The notes beneath the pieces were generated by a model that did no database searches, was not told where the DNA came from, and saw only the letters and a list, made by a program, of their open reading frames with translations. A DNA stretch of 11,881 bases from a virus (taxonomy: Duplodnaviria; Heunggongvirae; Uroviricota; Caudoviricetes): positions 1-11,881 of the IMG/VR virus record IMGVR_UViG_2579778791_000016; one strand, 5' to 3'. The position numbers were made by a program, and so were the translations under genes. Of this stretch, positions 3,686 to 11,866 are shown one piece after another; the stretch's first letter is position 1, and every line of letters begins with the position of its first letter.

Positions 3686-5536
3686 TTATGCTGCCGGTGC
3701 ATTTATCTCCAGCACCAGACTTTCTATCTCAACACCATACGCTGCATTTTTGGTAATATCCGTCAGCGTCAGCGCATTCAGCCCCAGTGTCAGACTGTCT
3801 TTTATGACCTGGAATGCCGGGCCAGCCACTCCATTCAGTTTCGGAGTAACCGTGGCACTGCCGGCGGTGAACACCAGCTCCAGCGTCTGCCAGTCGTTAC
3901 CGTAATCGCCGAACTCCCCCAGCTTCGTGTTTCCGGCTTTCCTGTGATGCATCAGATTCACTCTGCCGTCAGTGGTCTGAGTGAAGTGCGACATCAGGAA
4001 CGGATTACCGGTACCCGTCATCGCCACACCATCAGGAACGGGAGCGTCCGTATACAGATAAATCCCCAGCCCGAACTGATTGTTGGTCAGTGCGCCTGAG
4101 AGGCGGAACTTACAGGTCAGTCTGCCGCCCTGTGTCAGCAGGGTAATTGCGTCATCCACCGGATGCATCAGGGACCAGGTTTTATTGCTCTGCTTGGTGA
4201 TCTTAAATACACCATCTGACAACTGAATTCCGCCGTCCTTAATGGTCCAGCCCTGCGCAGCAGCATCTCCGGCTGTCGGCATCAGGGAGATTGTGCGTAT
4301 GGATGCATCTTCAGACGGCCCCGATGGCGTGTTGCCGCCGGGCGAGGGTTTGATTTCCGGTGCCTTACCACTGATGAAGGCTGAGGTGCGCCCGGCTGCG
4401 TTCAGAATAGCGGTTGCCAGACGATCCGGAATAATGCTCCTGCGCGCCCATGAACTGAAATGTGTCGGGCGGTTTGATGATACCTGGTTTCCATTCGTTC
4501 TCGATGCCGCACCGTAATATCCTGATGCCGGAATATCCGGATCTTCTGCCGGCGCGTTAGTGGCGGTATTGACGCCGTTACCGTCTGTCATGAAGGGCAC
4601 AAAATAAACGCCCTCACTCTCCCTGTTTTTATACCCGCCGTACACGGTGTCGTACTGGGTAGCGTATGTATTTTTCCAGTAATACGTCGTGTCACCACAA
4701 ACCCACGGCACATCTGCAGCACTGCCACCATGACACTGCGCGTTAAACACAGAGAGGTCAGCACGAAACTGCGTCAGCATGGCTGTAAACAGCGCAGGTT
4801 GCTGTGCGTAGGTGGCGGCGCTCATGTCAAACTCACCCTGCATCCAGCAGACGGCCAGCAGAACGTTTTTGGGATTTTTCTGCAATGCCGCTTTTGTGCG
4901 GGAAATCAGATCCTGATATAACGGCTTGCCCACCCCCCAGCGTGCCGAATCCTGACTGGCCCCCGTGGACTCGCTGAATGTCCCCTCCGCGCCCTGGGTA
5001 AATGCCGAACCACCACGACAGCATGGTACCAGCAGGATCCCCGCGTTATTCGGGATATACGGGAGCAGTTTTTTGGCAATATGTAAACCCTGACCGACAC
5101 AGCCGTACTGCCCTTTGCTCAGGTCAGCCCTCGGATGATTCAGCGTACTCATATCCTGCACATCATGCAGACAGTGGTCAGCCGGAATAATATCGTTATA
5201 TCTGCAGGCAGCCCCGCCCGGCGTCACTGTACTGCGGCGCGCCAGCTGTTTAATGCGCGGATCCGGAGCATCGTATGAATCCGGCAGCGGAAGCCCTTCA
5301 CCGTAAGCCATGGCATTGGACTGCCCGGCCAGTACGATGACGTAGTACCAATCCGGCTCAGATGAAGGGCCGACCTGTGCCTCTCCTTCAATAGCCACCG
5401 CCTGCATCAGTGTGTACGGCGTAATGGCAACCGGTCCGCCGTATGGCTGCCAGCCCTCTTTCAGTTTGTGTGTCAGCTTTTCCGCAAGGTCTGACGGCGA
5501 CGCCGCCCTGACAACATCGTAATGTTTAATCGACAT
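3686..5536 (-). CDS. nanS-p: Prophage sialate 9-O-acetylesterase (NanS-p / YjhS-like; N-terminal DUF1737-like region plus SGNH/SASA esterase domain)
   Basis: 616-aa ORF with ATG at 5536 and GGGAGA Shine-Dalgarno. Contains the SGNH block-I motif VIVLAGQSNAMAYGEG. Sits immediately upstream of the lysis cassette, as the nanS-p genes of Stx and related lambdoid prophages do. Confidence 0.75.
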   Translation of the reverse strand: MSIKHYDVVRAASPSDLAEKLTHKLKEGWQPYGGPVAITPYTLMQAVAIEGEAQVGPSSEPDWYYVIVLAGQSNAMAYGEGLPLPDSYDAPDPRIKQLARRSTVTPGGAACRYNDIIPADHCLHDVQDMSTLNHPRADLSKGQYGCVGQGLHIAKKLLPYIPNNAGILLVPCCRGGSAFTQGAEGTFSESTGASQDSARWGVGKPLYQDLISRTKAALQKNPKNVLLAVCWMQGEFDMSAATYAQQPALFTAMLTQFRADLSVFNAQCHGGSAADVPWVCGDTTYYWKNTYATQYDTVYGGYKNRESEGVYFVPFMTDGNGVNTATNAPAEDPDIPASGYYGAASRTNGNQVSSNRPTHFSSWARRSIIPDRLATAILNAAGRTSAFISGKAPEIKPSPGGNTPSGPSEDASIRTISLMPTAGDAAAQGWTIKDGGIQLSDGVFKITKQSNKTWSLMHPVDDAITLLTQGGRLTCKFRLSGALTNNQFGLGIYLYTDAPVPDGVAMTGTGNPFLMSHFTQTTDGRVNLMHHRKAGNTKLGEFGDYGNDWQTLELVFTAGSATVTPKLNGVAGPAFQVIKDSLTLGLNALTLTDITKNAAYGVEIESLVLEINAPAA

Positions 5537-5620
5537 CGAATTTCTCCCGTGTAGAGGAACAGAGTTAAAAAGCCGGAAGCGGAATCAAATCACAGGATGA
5601 CCATCTGCCAGTGGCAGGTC

Positions 5621-5649
5621 ATAAAAAAAAGGCTGCGCAATGCGCAGCC
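5621..5649 (-). terminator. Strong intrinsic terminator upstream of nanS-p; likely 3' end of the upstream cargo unit
   Basis: Minus strand GGCUGCGCA-UU-GCGCAGCC followed by UUUUUUUUAU. Confidence 0.65.
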
Positions 5650-6078
5650 AGAACTCACAAGGAAAATGATAAAAGGAATAACACTAGTGATGTACGCATG
5701 GCGCCTCCCGCTAAGTTCTGCAATGATCAAACAGAACTCGCTACGTGCCCTTAAAACTCGATCATTTAGCCCCTCCAAGGAGGATTCACCATGCGGTTGA
5801 TTTTTTAATAAACAGTAAACAAAAAAGTCAAGAATTATTCATTCTGTTCTTTCATCATCGGCCACAGCAATACCACAATGCCGCAGACCAGAGCGCCATC
5901 AGTCAGTACCAACATTATCCTGCTGGTGAAATCCATCATCACCATCACTAAAAGCAGGATCACAACAGCAAGCAGACACAGTTTATAAAACAATGTTCAG
6001 AAAACGCATTCAGCATGCCTAAGGTTCTATTCCTACGAATAGCCAACTTGCAACTTAAAATATTATTTATGCAGCCAA

Positions 6079-6795
6079 TTAAATTCTGGTCCTTACAATA
6101 TCAACCTGAAGATTCTTATCTTGTGCTGATTGATAAATGACAAACCTTTTACTACCTGCATTGAAAGAAGTAGACAAAACCAGACAATTATCATAACGAG
6201 CAAGAACATAATACCAACCATCATTATAATTAATCATTTCATATTCTTTCTTAAACTGTGGTTTGTAATATCCTGTCAGAAATGAAAAAAGCCAAAAATA
6301 TGCCACAAAAGCAATCATCACAATCTCAAAAAAATGTTTTTTTATAAATGGCTTATCATAGAAGCATGATACCGATAAAAATCGCCCATAAGATCTTATC
6401 GAAATTGTAACCGCCAGCGCAATCGCTGCTGACAGTAGCAAAAGAGGTACCTGAATCTTCTGTCTCAATATAGAAAACTCAATAATTGCCGGCACAAACA
6501 ATAATTCCACAGCAAAATAAAGGCGAAATACATTTAGCTCTTGCATAGAATGTTTTCTTTTCACTGCGAAAAAGAATACAACACCAATACCCCAACCGAT
6601 AAGAAATATAGCAATGACGATAACTGCAAAAAATAAACTTCTGGCAACATCATCAACACCTGCACCTACAATCCACCATGGGAAGCCGTAGTAAAAAGAA
6701 GTACCCCATCCATAGAAATAAGCACTCCCCCATCCAAGGCATCCCATGTAGGCAATAAAAAGTGAAGAACTCCTGAGCAGCGCACCATCCTTCAT
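6079..6795 (-). CDS. Uncharacterised polytopic membrane protein (about 5 predicted transmembrane helices plus a roughly 65-aa C-terminal soluble domain); AT-rich cargo gene
   Basis: Only long ORF in a markedly AT-rich block (track 6079..6837). Hydrophobic segments include LFIAYMGCLGWGSAYFYGW, LFFAVIVIAIFLIGWGIGVVFFFAV, FRLYFAVELLFVPAIIEF, LLLLSAAIALAVTISI and IVMIAFVAYFWLFSFLTGYY. Probable start is the ATG at 6795 (MKDGALL..., GGGGTGG upstream), because the first ATG at 6837 lies inside a promoter-like -10 element. No recognisable family. Confidence 0.6.
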   Translation of the reverse strand: MKDGALLRSSSLFIAYMGCLGWGSAYFYGWGTSFYYGFPWWIVGAGVDDVARSLFFAVIVIAIFLIGWGIGVVFFFAVKRKHSMQELNVFRLYFAVELLFVPAIIEFSILRQKIQVPLLLLSAAIALAVTISIRSYGRFLSVSCFYDKPFIKKHFFEIVMIAFVAYFWLFSFLTGYYKPQFKKEYEMINYNDGWYYVLARYDNCLVLSTSFNAGSKRFVIYQSAQDKNLQVDIVRTRI

Positions 6796-6832
6796 AACCA
6801 CCCCAATACAAGATGATAACATTGGCTTACAA

Positions 6833-6862
6833 CTCATAACAAAAGCAATTCAATGCCGTCAA
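6833..6862 (-). promoter_or_regulatory. Candidate sigma70 promoter of the membrane-protein cargo gene (TTGACG-N18-TATGAG)
   Basis: -35 TTGACG at 6862..6857, -10 TATGAG at 6838..6833, between the Q-proximal terminator and the gene. Judged by eye only. Confidence 0.3.
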
Positions 6863-6933
6863 GAGGTTACAGGCTAAAAAAACTCTATTACATAGCAGCC
6901 AGCATGTTTACCGTACAAGTACAACTCAGGGCA

Positions 6934-6961
6934 TAAAAAAAACCCACTCGGCAGCGGGTTT
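6934..6961 (-). terminator. Intrinsic terminator about 45 nt downstream of the Q stop codon (candidate tR')
   Basis: Minus strand AAACCCGCU-GCCG-AGUGGGUUU (G-U wobble in stem) followed by eight U. The plus strand also has a partial T-run after the hairpin. Confidence 0.65.
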
Positions 6962-6994
6962 ATACATTTTTTACAACATACCAAATTTGCATGA

Positions 6995-7023
6995 AGTATA
7001 TGGCTTTTAATCCAGTTTTGCAA
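6995..7023 (-). promoter_or_regulatory. Near-consensus sigma70 promoter overlapping the 3' end of Q (candidate late promoter pR' with qut)
   Basis: TTGCAA (7023..7018) - 17 nt - TATACT (7000..6995) on the minus strand. The Q stop codon (7009..7007) lies inside the spacer. A -10-like TGGTATGTT sits in the initial transcribed region. Confidence 0.45.
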
Positions 7024-7696
7024 TATTTTGCTGTAAAAATGCTGCCTTTTGTTTTGAACGTGTTCTCGTCACAAGCAATAAAGCATCACTATCAAGCTGT
7101 AGAAAAATGTGCTTCATTGCAACCCAGCGTTCAGTAAATGTCTCGGACCAGTTTTTTGTTGTCACTCCCACCAATGATGCCAGTGTCTGGTATTCATAGG
7201 CCTCACGCCCTGCAAGTTCGCTCTTCACATCCTGTGCAGCCAGCCAGATTAACGTCTTCAGGCGATCCAGTGTCTTACCTGCAATTTTTCTGTTACTTAA
7301 CAAATCTTTAAACTCGCTCCATGCCCATTGCGTTATGGTGACCTGATGCCCCCATCGAACGCTTTCGCTGTAACACCAAAGCAACCATGCTTTCTGATGT
7401 TCATCGAGAGACAAAACCGCGCGGCGCCATGAAGAGGTTGAGAATTCAACCGGGCTGACCAAAGCAATGGATGAACCTTTTGCGTACGACTGCTTACCGG
7501 AAGTCGGCGTATTATCCCGCGTAATCATCTTGCCAGTTACCACATCCAGAATGCGCGGCTTCTTTCGTTTGTATGTACCAGTATCAAATTGTGCATGCTC
7601 CTGCCAGGCTTCGAGCTGGCCTTTCGTTGCTCCGTTCAAGTCAGCAGTAGCTGCCATAAGTTGCTCACGAACATACTGTAAATATTGGGTATTCAT
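7007..7696 (-). CDS. Q: Q-like late antiterminator (long-form Q family, about 230-250 aa)
   Basis: Positioned after ninI and before the late/lysis genes, with a promoter and terminator at its 3' end. Start taken at the ATG at 7696 (MNTQYLQYVREQ..., AGGA Shine-Dalgarno 8 nt upstream) rather than the track start at 7780. Family assignment rests on context and size, not on recognised motifs. Confidence 0.5.
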   Translation of the reverse strand: MNTQYLQYVREQLMAATADLNGATKGQLEAWQEHAQFDTGTYKRKKPRILDVVTGKMITRDNTPTSGKQSYAKGSSIALVSPVEFSTSSWRRAVLSLDEHQKAWLLWCYSESVRWGHQVTITQWAWSEFKDLLSNRKIAGKTLDRLKTLIWLAAQDVKSELAGREAYEYQTLASLVGVTTKNWSETFTERWVAMKHIFLQLDSDALLLVTRTRSKQKAAFLQQNIAKLD

Positions 7697-8172
7697 GCAG
7701 TAAATCCTTTCTATATTTTGGCATAATTCTTCAACATTCGGTAATCGTTCAAAACCGAATCGGGGAAACGACATAAGCACAGGAGCCCCCAGCGACAGCG
7801 AAGGAGTTCTGATATATAAGACTCAGACATCATTCATTCCCCGGTTCTCCAATATCTGTTTCACTCATCATCCATAACTACCTGTAATTGCCCCCCCTTT
7901 TTTTGTAACAGTTCTTATATTGCTATATAGAATAGCCATTACTAATGCATTTAAATTTAATAAAATAAAAATTATAAAAAAACATAAAACACCACGCAAA
8001 CACACTTAATAAAAACACCGTTACATTAAAAGATAATAAAAACCACAATAAAAAACAAATAAATCAATTGTCTCACGCAATTATAAAACATCATATTGAT
8101 TACGCACCTTGTATTACAAACTCATGTATGTAAAATACGCGCACCATTCAAAAAAAAGGAAGACAATAACAT

Positions 8173-9132
8173 ATGAAAAAAAGTGTCATCGCTGGCGTCT
8201 TTATTGCTCTGTCATTTACCACGTGTTCAGCTATCGCGAACAGCCTTGCATTATCATTAGCAAATGATGATGCAGGGAAGTTTCAACCAATACTTAATGA
8301 TATTTATGGCAATAAACATGAAAACAGAGATGATTACTCACAAGGCTTATTTCTGGGATATAGCCACGATATCTCAGACTCGAGCCAATTATCTCTCCAT
8401 ATTGCGCAAGATATTTACTCTCCATCAGGCAGTAATAAAAGACACAACACAGCCGTAACTGGAGACAGAGCTTTTAGTGCATACACTCACACTGGTATTG
8501 AATGGAACTCCCTTGCGAATGACTGGATTCGCTATCGATTAGGTACTGACATAGGTGTTGTTGGCCCCGACGCAGGCGGTCAGAAAGTACAAAATAAAGC
8601 TCATGAGATTATTGGGGCAGAAAAATATCATGCATGGGATGATCAAATAGAGAATCGCTACGGTTATACTGTAAAAGGGATGCTATCCATGACACCAAGT
8701 ATGGATATTTTAGGTGCTAATGTTGGATTATACCCTGAAGTTTCTGCTGTTACTGGAAACTTATTTCAATATGTAGCATATGGCGCAACCATTGCCATTG
8801 GTAATGATAAAACCTTCAATTCGGATAATGGCTTTGGTCTGCTGGCTCCCCGTGGTTTAATGCATATGTCCGATACAAGCGGATTCAAATACAAGATTTT
8901 TGCAGGTATGGAAAGACGAGATGTCAATCGCAACTATACTCTCGAAGGAAAAACAATACAGACGAAACAAACAACAGTATCGCTAAACAAAACTGTTGAT
9001 GAATATCAAGTTGGCGCAACAATTGGGTATGCACCTGTAGCCTTCACACTAGCATTTAATAAAGTAACATCAGAATTCAAGACAGGGGATGACTATTCAT
9101 TTATAAATGGAGCAATCACCTTCTTTTTTTAA
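8173..9132 (+). CDS. lpxR: Outer-membrane beta-barrel protein, probably lipid A 3'-O-deacylase LpxR family
   Basis: Signal peptide MKKSVIAGVFIALSFTTCSAIA, predicted mature size 296 aa (the size I recall for mature LpxR), C-terminal aromatic beta-barrel signature ...GAITFFF, AAGGAAG Shine-Dalgarno. AT-rich gene with a long AT-rich upstream region, opposite in orientation to the flanking phage genes. Confidence 0.55.
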   Translation: MKKSVIAGVFIALSFTTCSAIANSLALSLANDDAGKFQPILNDIYGNKHENRDDYSQGLFLGYSHDISDSSQLSLHIAQDIYSPSGSNKRHNTAVTGDRAFSAYTHTGIEWNSLANDWIRYRLGTDIGVVGPDAGGQKVQNKAHEIIGAEKYHAWDDQIENRYGYTVKGMLSMTPSMDILGANVGLYPEVSAVTGNLFQYVAYGATIAIGNDKTFNSDNGFGLLAPRGLMHMSDTSGFKYKIFAGMERRDVNRNYTLEGKTIQTKQTTVSLNKTVDEYQVGATIGYAPVAFTLAFNKVTSEFKTGDDYSFINGAITFFF

Positions 9133-9161
9133 CTGAATTGAATTCAATCAAAATAACATAA

Positions 9162-9214
9162 GTCCAACAAAAACATAAAGTGCGAAATGAATGCCAGCTC
9201 CATTTATTTCGCAC
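9162..9214 (-). terminator. Intrinsic terminator in the ninI-lpxR convergent intergenic region (minus-strand orientation)
   Basis: 14-bp stem GUGCGAAAUGAAUG/CAUUUAUUUCGCAC (one G-U pair) with a 7-nt loop, followed on the minus strand by UUUAUGUUUUUGUUGG. Confidence 0.5.
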
Positions 9215-9343
9215 TATAAAAGATTAAAAGTTGCAATAAAATAATAAAATGACTCAGTTACGAAAACCAATAAACTGTGGCCAGTAGTGAGTCGCTCATC
9301 ATCGGGCTTTTTGGCGAATGAAATTTAGCTACGCTTTCGAGTC

Positions 9344-10009
9344 TCATGCGCCTTCTCCCTGTACCTGAATCAATGTGAGGTTTCCGCAGAACACTGCGCC
9401 AGTATCGATATACATCTGGTTGGCAAATTTGAGTGGTTTCACTGCTGGCGTATGACCAAAGATGAACGTGTCCGCGCCTTTGATTTCTTTCACGATCCCG
9501 TCTTGTGAGTTGCTGATTCGTTCGCGGTTCCAGATTACCTGCTGATGATCAACTGGCTTTCCAAACTCGTATTTATCACAAGGATAATCGGCGTGGCAAA
9601 TGACATATTTTTTATCTTTGCTCACCAGTTCGATGATTAACGGAAGTTCTTCTGCTTTATGGGCAAGAACTTTAGCCAGAGTCTCTTTGTCGTAATCGAG
9701 ATTAAAGAACCAGCCACCGCCATTAAGCAGCCAGTGATTAACGTTTCCACGCTCTGATAAGCCATCAATCATCATTTGCTCATGGTTTCCACGCACAGCT
9801 CTGAACCAGGGGAATGTGATTAATTCCAGACATTCGACGTTCTCTGTACCGCGATCAACCAAATCGCCAACCGAGATGAGCAGGTCTTTTTTGGTGTCGA
9901 ATCCAATCGTATCCAGTTTGTTCATCAGGTTCGTGTAGCATCCGTGCAGGTCGCCAGCTACCCAAATATTTCGGTATTTGCTGCCATCAATTCTTTCGTA
10001 GATATTCAT
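9344..10009 (-). CDS. ninI: Ser/Thr protein phosphatase (lambda NinI / lambda-PPase homologue)
   Basis: 221 aa with metallophosphatase motifs GDLHG, GDLVDRG and GNHE; near-identical to lambda phosphatase as recalled. Start overlaps the ninG stop (ATGA). Confidence 0.9.
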
Positions 10010-10620
10010 GCAGCCTCACTTCTGCTGTTTCGCAGGTCTTTGAGTTTCTGTTGGTACTCTGCCTTGATCGCCTTGCACTCTTCGACAGTCCAGCGATGGC
10101 GGTTATGGTTTGATTCGATTTCGTCTACTGCTTCCTGCCTGATGCGGCTAATCAGTTCGACGCGATACGGAACGAGATTTCCGCTTTTGTGCTGGTTGCA
10201 CACCACGCATTGCTTGTGAATATTGCGTTCATCAAATCGGAGTTGAGGTGCCGCAGCAGTTGTCCGGTAATGTCCGGCATCCCACTGAGCAGACGTGAGC
10301 GTTCCGCACGAGATACATGGTAAGTCGCGGTCTCTTTCTCTGATGAAGGCGTTTACGGCTTGTTGGGCTTGTTTAATCCAGTAACTGCGGGGCTTTAAGG
10401 CGAGTTTTCGAATCTTAAGTTTATCTTTCTGTTTCTGCTCCTCTCGTCGTCGTTTCTTCTCTGCTGCTTTTTCCGCTTTTTCGCGTTCTTTACTTCGTCG
10501 TTCGAGTGCTATCTTGGTTCCACACTCTGGAGAGCACCACCACTGATTAGCGAATGCAGGGTGAAACCATTCCCGACATTCATCGTTTTTACATCGTCTT
10601 CGCGCTGGTTTAGCCATCAT
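10006..10620 (-). CDS. ninG: NinG / Rap recombination-associated protein
   Basis: 204 aa, [34 protein letters not shown]...; near-identical to lambda NinG as recalled. Confidence 0.9.
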
Positions 10621-10780: not shown

Positions 10781-10959
10781 CTTGTATTCCTCGCACGATG
10801 TCTTAGCCACCGGATATCCCACAGGTGAGCCGTGTAGTTGAAGGTTTTTACGTCAGATTCTTTTGGGATTGGCTTGCGTTTATTTCTGGAGCGTTTCGTT
10901 GGAAGGTATTTGCAGTTTTCGCAGATGATGTCGGTGAAACTTCGTCGTTGTCGCCTCAT
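10777..10959 (-). CDS. ninE: NinE
   Basis: 60 aa, [60 protein letters not shown], near-identical to lambda NinE. ATG overlaps the upstream stop (ATGA). Confidence 0.85.
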
Positions 10960-11415
10960 GTCGCCCTCCTGACGCCCTGCCCGATCGCCATCAATGCCGC
11001 TTTGGATACGATAGTAAACATCCGTCGAGGACTAATGAACGGTCGCCAAATCAGCAGCATGGAGCCTTTGCTGTTTCCCTTCTTCTCCAGCCCTGTCGAT
11101 GGTTCGATAAAATTAATCCGTCCATCAGTGATAATACGAACTTCGTCAACACTCTCCAGAGCCTTGCTGAACCATCCGACAGACATATCCTCTGGCACAA
11201 GCATCACTACCGTCTGTCGCTGTTGTATGCACTGCTCAGCGGCTTTTTCCACCCACGGCCTGATATTGCTGTACGGTGGGTTATTCCAGATTGCACCGTG
11301 GCTTATCCACTCAGAATTTAGCGCGTCGTCAGCCTCAGTTAGCCAGTGAGCGCACAGAGCGTTTTTGTCGCTCGCTGCCGAATCCAGCCAGAATCCAAAC
11401 TCAATATCCAGTGCA

Positions 11416-11866
<451 letters not shown>

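Follow-up and report, generated by a model that had tools for sequence, protein, structure and literature searches.

PagL, the lipid A 3-O-deacylase, is a barrel of the outer membrane that cleaves an acyl chain from lipid A and reduces its recognition by TLR4; it differs from LpxR in barrel size, in its Ser-His catalysis and in attacking position 3 rather than 3′. Lambdoid phages also carry cargo genes known as morons, bor and lom among them, which are lower-GC genes for outer-membrane proteins of benefit to the host, placed between phage genes and expressed in the prophage state. LpxR of Salmonella Typhimurium (PDB 3FID) is encoded by a chromosomal gene that the sRNA MicF represses (PMC4651636). 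The closest described relatives of the locus analyzed here are lpxR of Escherichia coli O157:H7 (Z0955 in EDL933, in the prophage CP-933K region; WP_000750155.1) and gene CPT_434_65 of Escherichia phage 434 (OL657226). The O157:H7 gene has been noted since 2006 and was studied by mutation in 2018. As summarized in two later papers, an lpxR mutant of O157:H7 Sakai displays less lipid A deacylation (Ogawa 2018, via PMC6863877 and PMC6393859) and elicits stronger TLR4-mediated inflammatory and phagocytic responses (Ogawa 2018, via PMC6863877). Expression of O157:H7 lpxR requires Pch and Ler, according to PMC6393859. The gene has been placed in the LEE/Ler modulon by independent-component analysis (PMC9263587), drops together with LEE genes in adhered cells (PMC7649339), falls with LEE genes in yhaO and yhaJ mutants, where it is named Z0955 (PMC4699771), and is associated with LEE across genomes (PMC6724679). 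It is found in about 97% of surveyed genomes of the major EHEC serotypes (PMC6863877), and LpxR was tested in 2019 as a vaccine antigen, with candidate MC001.

LpxR is a real virulence-associated cargo that lowers the endotoxicity of lysogen lipid A and shares its regulation with the type III secretion system. All of the LpxR biology relevant to our locus is already published, and both RefSeq and the phage 434 record name the gene correctly; the presence of lpxR here therefore brings no new biology, and the gene is an already described one of pathogenic E. coli. What we add is a map of the cassette borders, a correction concerning ninH, and a count by which an upstream C-run varies in length far more often than A-runs nearby.

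The DNA that we analyzed (hereafter the window) is an 11,881-nucleotide stretch of the IMG/VR virus record IMGVR_UViG_2579778791_000016. At 8173-9132 on the + strand, it carries an ATG-initiated ORF of 319 codons plus a stop, whose product ends in GAITFFF, while all adjacent phage genes lie on the − strand; the original prediction of a 319-residue protein encoded on the opposite strand and ending in ITFFF was accurate. The product matched the Pfam family PF09982 (LpxR) at 6.8e-40 (137.4 bits, cut-off 26), with residues 10-318 covering profile positions 2-320 of 323 and hence the full length. Its residues 24-319 aligned with residues 2-296 of Salmonella LpxR (3FID) at an E-value of 3.6e-153, with 220 of 296 aligned positions (74%) identical over the mature protein end to end. 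The protein is 100% identical to those of O157:H7 (WP_000750155.1) and phage 434 (UMO75329), and RefSeq labels it "lipid A deacylase LpxR family protein". Since NCBIfam models gave no match to the product, the name LpxR rests on Pfam, PDB and RefSeq. These searches also refuted the idea that the product is a member of some other outer-membrane family (a PagL, an OmpT-like protease or a porin) and resembles LpxR only superficially: LpxR was the sole Pfam family and 3FID the sole PDB match at E <= 0.01, no sequence relationship to PagL was detected in either database, and identity to 3FID extends from end to end, leaving that idea a negligible probability. Judged by its sequence, the ORF is a genuine LpxR lipid A 3′-O-deacylase, as had been proposed, and not a member of the PagL family. 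It is almost certainly the prophage-borne lpxR of attaching-and-effacing E. coli, carried by a lambdoid prophage, in its nin-Q region, as a self-contained cargo cassette ("moron").

The N-terminus of the product, MKKSVIAGVFIALSFTTCSAIA followed by NS, resembles a signal peptide by eye, and we predict that residues 1-22 (MKKSVIAGVFIALSFTTCSAIA; 8173-8238, + strand) are removed by cleavage before N23. With the precursor-to-mature numbering offset of 22 taken from the O157 protein (PMC6863877), mature LpxR has 297 residues, very near the 296 or so first estimated. The product thus combines a predicted cleavable signal peptide with a C-terminal aromatic β-signal (ITFFF), both of which are outer-membrane targeting features. 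The alignment with the 3FID chain begins at residue 24, near the predicted cleavage site.

The active-site residues listed in PMC6863877 and PMC6260217 are all kept: N9, D10, D11, S34, K67, Q118, H122, E128 and Y130 in mature numbering, or N31, D32, D33, S56, K89, Q140, H144, E150 and Y152 in the precursor. Their described roles comprise the catalytic His122 with E128 and Q118, the Ca2+ site formed by N9, D10 and T(S)34, and substrate contacts through K67 and Y130 (PMC6863877; PMC6260217). Salmonella LpxR has the same family, length, fold and C-terminal ITFFF and shares His122, the Ca2+ ligands N9 and D10, and K67, Q118, E128 and Y130, but it carries Thr at position 34, where both the window's protein and the O157 protein carry Ser, and one extra loop residue separates the two sequences. 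Simulations suggest that T34 is dispensable for holding Ca2+ (PMC6260217). The conservation check called for by the original prediction accordingly came out in its favor, with Ser34 for Thr as the one substitution.

From these features and the published work, we propose that LpxR would be exported via its signal peptide to the outer membrane and form a 12-stranded β-barrel there, where its Ca2+-dependent hydrolysis of the 3′-acyloxyacyl ester of lipid A would strip off two fatty acids. His122 would activate water, while Asn9, Asp10 and Ser34 would hold the ester-polarizing Ca2+. Tetra-acylated lipid A would result, which is a weaker agonist of TLR4/MD-2, and a lysogen would therefore trigger less inflammation and phagocytosis. 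That every catalytic residue is kept, that the ORF is intact and near-invariant across 620 complete E. coli genomes and that 48 of 54 IMG/VR loci encode the same protein together argue against a reading in which the LpxR-fold barrel is latent or inactive in this host, a passive passenger of the Q module that leaves lipid A unaffected. Such latency would find some precedent in Salmonella LpxR, which Reynolds 2006 reportedly described as largely latent under ordinary growth, and would accord with expression that is conditional on Ler and Pch. Deletion of the identical protein in Sakai, however, cuts lipid A deacylation and raises TLR4 signaling according to PMC6863877, and we consider a latent barrel highly unlikely. 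Returning to an active LpxR, we take the published function and regulation of the identical O157:H7 enzyme to hold directly for the window's gene as well. The suggestion that the gene is an immune-evasion cargo agrees with the published work on the O157:H7 protein, as summarized in PMC6863877 and PMC6393859.

Comparison with other lambdoid phages delimited an AT-rich lpxR cassette of ~1.4 kb, at about 7843-9276: homology to phage 82 (rus-orf45-Q) stops at about 7842 and that to lambda Q sets in at about 9277. On the ninI side, tblastn of lambda Q revealed a remnant of a lambda-type Q gene (9273-9347, − strand) encoding residues 1-25 with 88% identity, its DNA matching lambda positions 43890-43956. 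This remnant overlaps the ninI stop and was found in 52 of 52 near-identical loci; the annotations of phage 434 and O157 list it as an N-terminal fragment or a pseudogene. On the other side lies a ylcG-like small ORF of 40 residues (7711-7833, − strand), which is annotated in phage 434 and RefSeq genomes, is homologous to phage 82 orf45 and sits directly upstream of the late-gene antiterminator Q. The latter is a phage-82-type protein of 229 residues (7007-7696, − strand; Pfam PF06323, 2e-90, ORF residues 32-247). Whereas the longest Q ORF (7007-7780) reaches a GTG at 7780, RefSeq and phage 434 use the ATG at 7696, which is probably the start. Between Q and the lysis genes, the window also encodes a nanS-p-type esterase.

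Upstream of the Q remnant are genes for a ninI-type Ser/Thr phosphatase (9344-10009, − strand; 94.6% identical to lambda NinI) and for NinG (rap; 10006-10620, − strand; 98.5% identical to lambda). The gene order in lambda is NinG (204 residues)-NinH (68)-NinI (221)-Q. The original prediction held that lpxR occupies the place of ninH between ninI and Q. A tblastn search indeed found ninH absent from the window, but its place in lambda is the ninG/ninI junction (~10006-10009 here), where ninG abuts ninI directly. Because lambda ninH lies between ninG and ninI, lpxR does not displace it; lpxR instead follows the truncated lambda-type Q. Like bor and lom, this lpxR has its own upstream region, a hairpin past its stop codon and a lower GC content than its surroundings. 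Unlike them, it is flanked by a truncated Q and a functional one, runs antisense to early transcription, and responds to virulence regulators whose genes lie elsewhere in the host.

The cassette is present in 620 of 5,426 complete E. coli genomes, in one chromosomal copy each. The window as a whole was matched by no complete E. coli genome (best coverage 86%). The layout Q remnant/lpxR/ylcG recurs in 52 prophage loci of IMG/VR, of which 50 also have the same Q gene, as well as in phage 434 and O157. O157:H7 shares the whole arrangement of ninG-ninI, Q remnant, opposite-strand lpxR, ylcG and Q, and its lpxR upstream region is 97-99% identical to that of the window; strain PV15-279 differs by a run of six rather than seven Cs, by a few upstream SNPs and A-run indels, and by its lack of the nanS-p-type esterase. 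In phage 434, the module DNA is 99.1% identical and the neighboring genes match the window from ninB to the SASA esterase and holin, the differences being a C6 run and a few indels. Phage 434 is a free phage, whereas the window may come from a prophage or a phage; the presence of the module in phage 434 shows that a classical, viable lambdoid phage can carry the cassette. A single-protein scan of genome contigs returned only one locus, a chromosomal Citrobacter lpxR adjoining phoPQ, whose upstream DNA is not homologous to that of the cassette.

The original prediction described roughly 390 bp of AT-rich DNA (7781-8172) upstream of an AT-rich gene. GC contents of 39.5% for lpxR and 28.6% for 7834-8172, as well as 27.8% for 9133-9276, against 49% for the nin genes and 45.9% for the window, bear out the composition. 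The extent needs revision: with the Q start at 7696 and the ylcG-like ORF occupying 7711-7833, the first 53 bp (7781-7833) lie within that opposite-strand ORF, and the intergenic region is therefore 339 bp (7834-8172), bounded by the ylcG-like start and the lpxR ATG. On the + strand, this region should hold the lpxR promoter and the 5′ UTR. Its last ~110 nucleotides before the ATG are conserved even in cassettes diverged to 83-84% identity. A ribosome-binding site, AGGAAG (8157-8162, + strand), was read from the sequence, and the phage 434 record annotates one at the corresponding position; the site is invariant in 10 aligned loci, as is the A8 run (8150-8157) that precedes it.

Consensus promoter-like sites in 7600-9400 numbered five, compared with 6.2 in shuffled sequences, and thus showed no excess from which a promoter could be placed; the high-affinity H-NS motif TCGATAAATT, with two or fewer mismatches allowed, had no site in 7834-8172 and no enrichment in the window. 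Ler acts by countering H-NS. The view that the upstream region is silenced by a xenogeneic silencer such as H-NS fits, indirectly, with its 28.6% GC and the reported need for Ler and Pch. Without Ler, H-NS would silence this region; through Pch and Ler, as the published work describes, it would be switched on together with the LEE virulence regulon. Since lpxR opposes the early rightward transcription of the phage and has its own AT-rich upstream region, reportedly under Pch/Ler control, it would be expressed from the repressed prophage and benefit the host. Rfam models, even at permissive thresholds, detected nothing inside 7781-9343. By contrast with the MicF-repressed Salmonella gene, the window's lpxR shows MicF pairing no better than chance at its ribosome-binding-site region and a modest match within the coding region, a perfect 9-nt complement at 8263-8271 (−13 kcal/mol) that 6.6% of shuffles equal.

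A C7T7 homopolymer pair lies exactly where it had been predicted, at 7891-7904 (+ strand), and is the only run of at least five Cs followed by at least five Ts in the window. Its suspected length polymorphism was found as well. In 10 aligned loci, the C-run ranged from C6 to C9 while T7 was invariant; in the 620 genomes, C7 was present in 435 (70%), C6 in 91 (15%), C8 in 68 (11%) and other forms in 26. A control stretch that includes A8 and A7 runs was exact in 614 of 620 genomes (99%). As a terminator, C7T7 was rejected for being unstructured on both strands (z 0.13 and 1.49).

The run would be a slippage hotspot. A stronger reading makes 7891-7897 a contingency (phase-variation) element through which expression of lpxR, or of ylcG-Q on the opposite strand, would vary between cells. 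A C-run other than C7 is seen in 30% of the 620 genomes, as opposed to the nearly constant A8/A7 control; C6, C7 and C8 are all represented in a single haplotype whose 1483 nt show no other differences; and diverged cassettes differ most precisely at the tract (C3T2C5T5 and C5T3). Yet these same diverged cassettes retain an intact gene, which suggests that no one length is required. Tract length does vary among close isolates, as at phase-variable loci, with sequencing or assembly error in G/C homopolymers a possible source, and other A-runs of the region vary too in the 10 aligned loci. The tract itself is intergenic and, as far as predicted sites show, occupies neither a reading frame nor a promoter spacer: the C-run precedes the lpxR ATG by 276-282 nt and ylcG by ~58 nt, and the promoter-like site closest to it (7905-7933) is downstream, so spacer length would be unaffected. 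In E. coli with functional mismatch repair, moreover, runs of 6-9 are on the short side for slippage to be efficient. A contingency element is thus unlikely, and quite unlikely is its specific form, in which the C6-C9 run acts as a slippage switch that shifts the phasing of an H-NS/Ler nucleoprotein complex relative to the promoter or tunes ylcG-Q on the other strand. If true, lysogen populations would hedge between high and low lipid A deacylation, or prophage induction would be tuned through ylcG-Q.

Downstream of lpxR, RNA folding identified a 15-bp hairpin (9179-9215), 47 nt past the stop codon, with a minimum free energy of −20.3 kcal/mol (z −4.31; equaled by none of 200 shuffles). It is conserved at 99-100% in 52 related loci and is followed by a U-run on the − strand only; a consensus terminator scan did not report it. 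Its shape suggests that the hairpin, with its minus-strand U-run, might halt stray transcription from the nin genes, and during lytic growth N-modified polymerase would presumably read through the hairpin and antisense lpxR to ylcG-Q. The lpxR feature as first drawn ended at 9214, a position that coincides with this hairpin.

The window reads as the minus-strand right arm of a lambdoid prophage, with the gene order NinB, Dam methylase, NinE, NinF, NinG (10006-10620), a NinI-type phosphatase (9344-10009) and Q (longest ORF, 7007-7780). Late genes follow Q: a 252-aa membrane protein, a 616-aa SASA/DUF1737 esterase, and then holin, endolysin and Rz. The sole long ORF in the opposite direction lies at 8173-9132 (+) and encodes 319 aa ending in GAITFFF. 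A reversed gene of this length and ending (ITFFF), between the nin region and Q, is what the original prediction had described. GC content is 39.5% in this gene and, in the noncoding DNA on either side, 28.6% (7834-8172) and 27.8% (9133-9276), compared with 49% in the nin genes.

By every feature testable here from the sequence, the gene belongs to the LpxR family. PF09982 (LpxR) was the sole Pfam family matched (6.8e-40, 137 bits vs. a cut-off of 26, residues 10-318). The match to 3FID, the crystallised Salmonella LpxR, extended from residue 24 through the last residue (E 3.6e-153), with identity at 220 of the 296 aligned positions. Using the active-site residues listed for the O157 homologue (PMC6863877) and in PMC6260217, with a precursor offset of 22, we found N9, D10, D11, S34, K67, Q118, H122, E128 and Y130 all present; position 34 is Thr in Salmonella LpxR but Ser in the O157 and window proteins. 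What reads as a typical signal peptide (cleavage site AIA|N) opens the protein, and its C-terminal FFF matches the beta-signal usual for outer-membrane proteins. Because of these matches and residues, the two outcomes that could have overturned the proposed LpxR identity, a different outer-membrane protein family or loss of the active site, do not hold. PagL resembles the window's LpxR in outcome only.

The gene is already named and studied, as its product is identical to an experimentally investigated EHEC protein by sequence. That product matches RefSeq WP_000750155.1 ("lipid A deacylase LpxR family protein"; E. coli O157:H7) at 100% identity, and CPT_434_65 of phage 434, annotated "outer membrane beta-barrel lipid A deacylase LpxR", is likewise identical to it. 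DNA at 7781-9343 shows 99.7-99.8% identity to many EHEC and EPEC chromosomes and 99.1% to phage 434. The region upstream of lpxR was found in 620 of 5426 complete E. coli genomes, always as a single chromosomal copy. The gene is called Z0955 in EDL933 (PMC4699771) and, according to a review citing Reynolds 2006, is present in O157:H7 and absent from K-12 (PMC4651636). PMC6863877 and PMC6393859 summarise an O157:H7 Sakai lpxR mutant with reduced lipid A deacylation, and stronger TLR4-mediated NF-kB/p38 signaling and phagocytosis, and state that lpxR transcription needs both Pch and Ler (Ogawa et al., 2018). The suggestion of immune-evasion cargo agrees with the reported mutant phenotype. Independent transcriptome work assigned lpxR to the LEE/Ler modulon (PMC9263587), its expression falls along with that of LEE (PMC7649339), and population genomics associated LEE with lpxR (PMC6724679). 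The gene occurs in 97.3% of 224 EHEC genomes and has been tried as a protective antigen (PMC6863877).

Sequence, homology and published work give the following course of events. Judged by sequence and homology, LpxR would be exported and its barrel inserted in the outer membrane, where, by the mechanism described for 3FID, it would hydrolyze the 3'-acyloxyacyl ester in a Ca2+-dependent manner, with His122 activating water (PMC6260217). The resulting lipid A would be less stimulatory and TLR4 signaling weaker, as reported in PMC6863877. Expression accompanies that of LEE through Pch and Ler, as PMC6393859 and the other two expression reports indicate (PMC9263587, PMC7649339). In its pattern the gene corresponds to the "morons" known from lambdoid phages.

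We delimited the lpxR cassette from both sides. The window is homologous to phage 82 (rus-orf45-Q) from within Q up to ~7842, just beyond the start and RBS of a ylcG-like ORF, where this homology ends; homology to lambda begins at ~9277; alignment thus places the cassette at about 7843-9276 (1434 bp). On the lambda side lies a remnant of a lambda-type Q (9273-9347, -), comprising its first 25 codons at 88% identity and overlapping the ninI stop just as lambda Q does; it is annotated as a Q fragment or pseudogene in phage 434 and RefSeq. On the other side, the ylcG-like ORF (7711-7833, -; 40 aa) is homologous to phage 82 orf45. A naive ORF call hides this gene because the longest Q ORF, from a GTG at 7780, overlaps it; curated records (phage 434, RefSeq) place the Q start at the 7696 ATG, which fits the Pfam match beginning at ORF residue 32. 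The cassette is therefore flanked by a defunct lambda-type Q on one side and a live ylcG-Q pair of the 82 type on the other.

The Q remnant, cassette and ylcG occur together in all 52 near-identical IMG/VR prophage loci, and in 50 of them the same Q gene is matched too. What lies past the remnant is variable: it is ninI in about half of the 52, and in L018, the one ninI-less locus examined, a NinH-RusA-YbcO-NinX set replaces it. Since these parts travel together while the neighboring gene varies, we take Q remnant-lpxR-ylcG-Q to be the block that lambdoid phages exchange by recombination, with the Q stub, constant whatever lies beyond it, marking the recombination joint. NinH adjoins the remnant in some cassette relatives. 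A search across the window confirmed that ninH is missing, as originally noted; the accompanying view that lambda has ninH-Q at the lpxR site was mistaken, because the lambda order is NinG-NinH-NinI-Q. The window's NinG and NinI genes overlap by four bases at ninH's lambda position.

The AT-rich upstream region, previously put at ~390 bp, is indeed AT-rich but spans 339 bp (7834-8172), as 7781-7833 belongs to the ylcG-like ORF. Ler is an established H-NS antagonist, and this role and the base composition suggest that H-NS may silence the upstream DNA, in which no H-NS consensus site was found. The predicted C7T7 tract lies at exactly 7891-7904, with no other such run in the window, and its suspected proneness to slippage was borne out as length polymorphism. 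Among ten aligned loci, the C-run was C6, C7, C8 or C9 while T7 was invariant; exact-match counting in the 620 genomes gave C7 in 435, C6 in 91, C8 in 68 and others in 26. An equally long control stretch with A8 and A7 runs was exact in 614 of the 620, so generic homopolymer miscalling does not explain this variation. Fourteen IMG/VR cassettes identical over 1483 nt with the tract masked carried C7 (8), C8 (4) or C6 (2), indicating that base substitutions of any kind accrue more slowly than changes in the tract. At the same position two diverged cassettes read C3T2C5T5 and C5T3, and conservation persists over the ~110 nt preceding the ATG. A regulatory role for the hypervariable C-run appears improbable: it lies 276-282 nt from the lpxR ATG and is not within the spacer of the promoter-like site closest to it, the tract formed no structure in folding analysis, and nearby A-runs vary too.

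Beyond the gene, 47 nt past the lpxR stop, lies a very stable 15-bp hairpin (9179-9215, z -4.31). Because a U-run follows it on the minus strand alone, it looks more terminator-like for nin transcripts than for lpxR. It may mainly stop un-modified transcripts that enter from the nin genes; lpxR would then be insulated in the lysogen, and Q would still need N-mediated antitermination. For lpxR itself it would be only a 3' stabiliser or weak terminator. As lpxR is antisense to the only pR-to-Q route, lytic transcription would have to cross it. Within the gene, nt 4-12 of E. coli MicF, an sRNA reported to repress Salmonella lpxR via a coding-region site, have a perfect complement in the N9-D10-D11 codons (8263-8271, +; AAUGAUGAU). 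The duplex (-13 kcal/mol) was equaled by 6.6% of shuffles, making this complementarity at the active-site codons suggestive only.

LpxR genes were also seen outside this cassette. A second one, 71% identical, lies on another viral contig (L066 and L067, 835-1794) by IS3 transposase fragments and a DUF4376 gene, which we take to be tail-fibre-associated; if so, phages picked up LpxR-family genes at more than one position. A chromosomal LpxR of Citrobacter sp. ANG330 (L013, 2995-3960), 73% identical, lies in an AT-rich patch ~600 bp upstream of phoP-phoQ, and its upstream DNA has no homology to the E. coli cassette and no C/T tract.

Elsewhere in the window, a Dam-family N6-adenine methyltransferase gene (10956-11552, -) lies between ninB and ninE, as in phage 434, whereas lambda has ninC and ninD there. 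The late region (3686-7000, -) resembles that of Stx-converting phages in its 82-type Q, small membrane proteins and esterase before holin; it contains no stx or tRNA genes. The esterase is nanS-p-like (SASA/DUF1737/DUF6645), and the 252-aa multi-pass membrane protein (6079-6837, -) has no Pfam match. Downstream of the lysis cassette, a likely further cargo gene (906-1247, -) encodes a 113-aa protein that has a TonB C-terminal domain and, possibly, a lipobox-like signal (LVMGC). Finally, the prophage sRNA family STnc100 was matched over its full length at 5620-5824 (-), scoring 41.4 bits where the gathering score is 47 (E 2.7e-6). According to a 2026 preprint, STnc100 is related to the EPEC sRNAs PasD1/PasD2, and >98% of PasD hits have Q and LpxR within 10 kb; a PasD-type sRNA is thus probably encoded in the window, upstream of the esterase gene.
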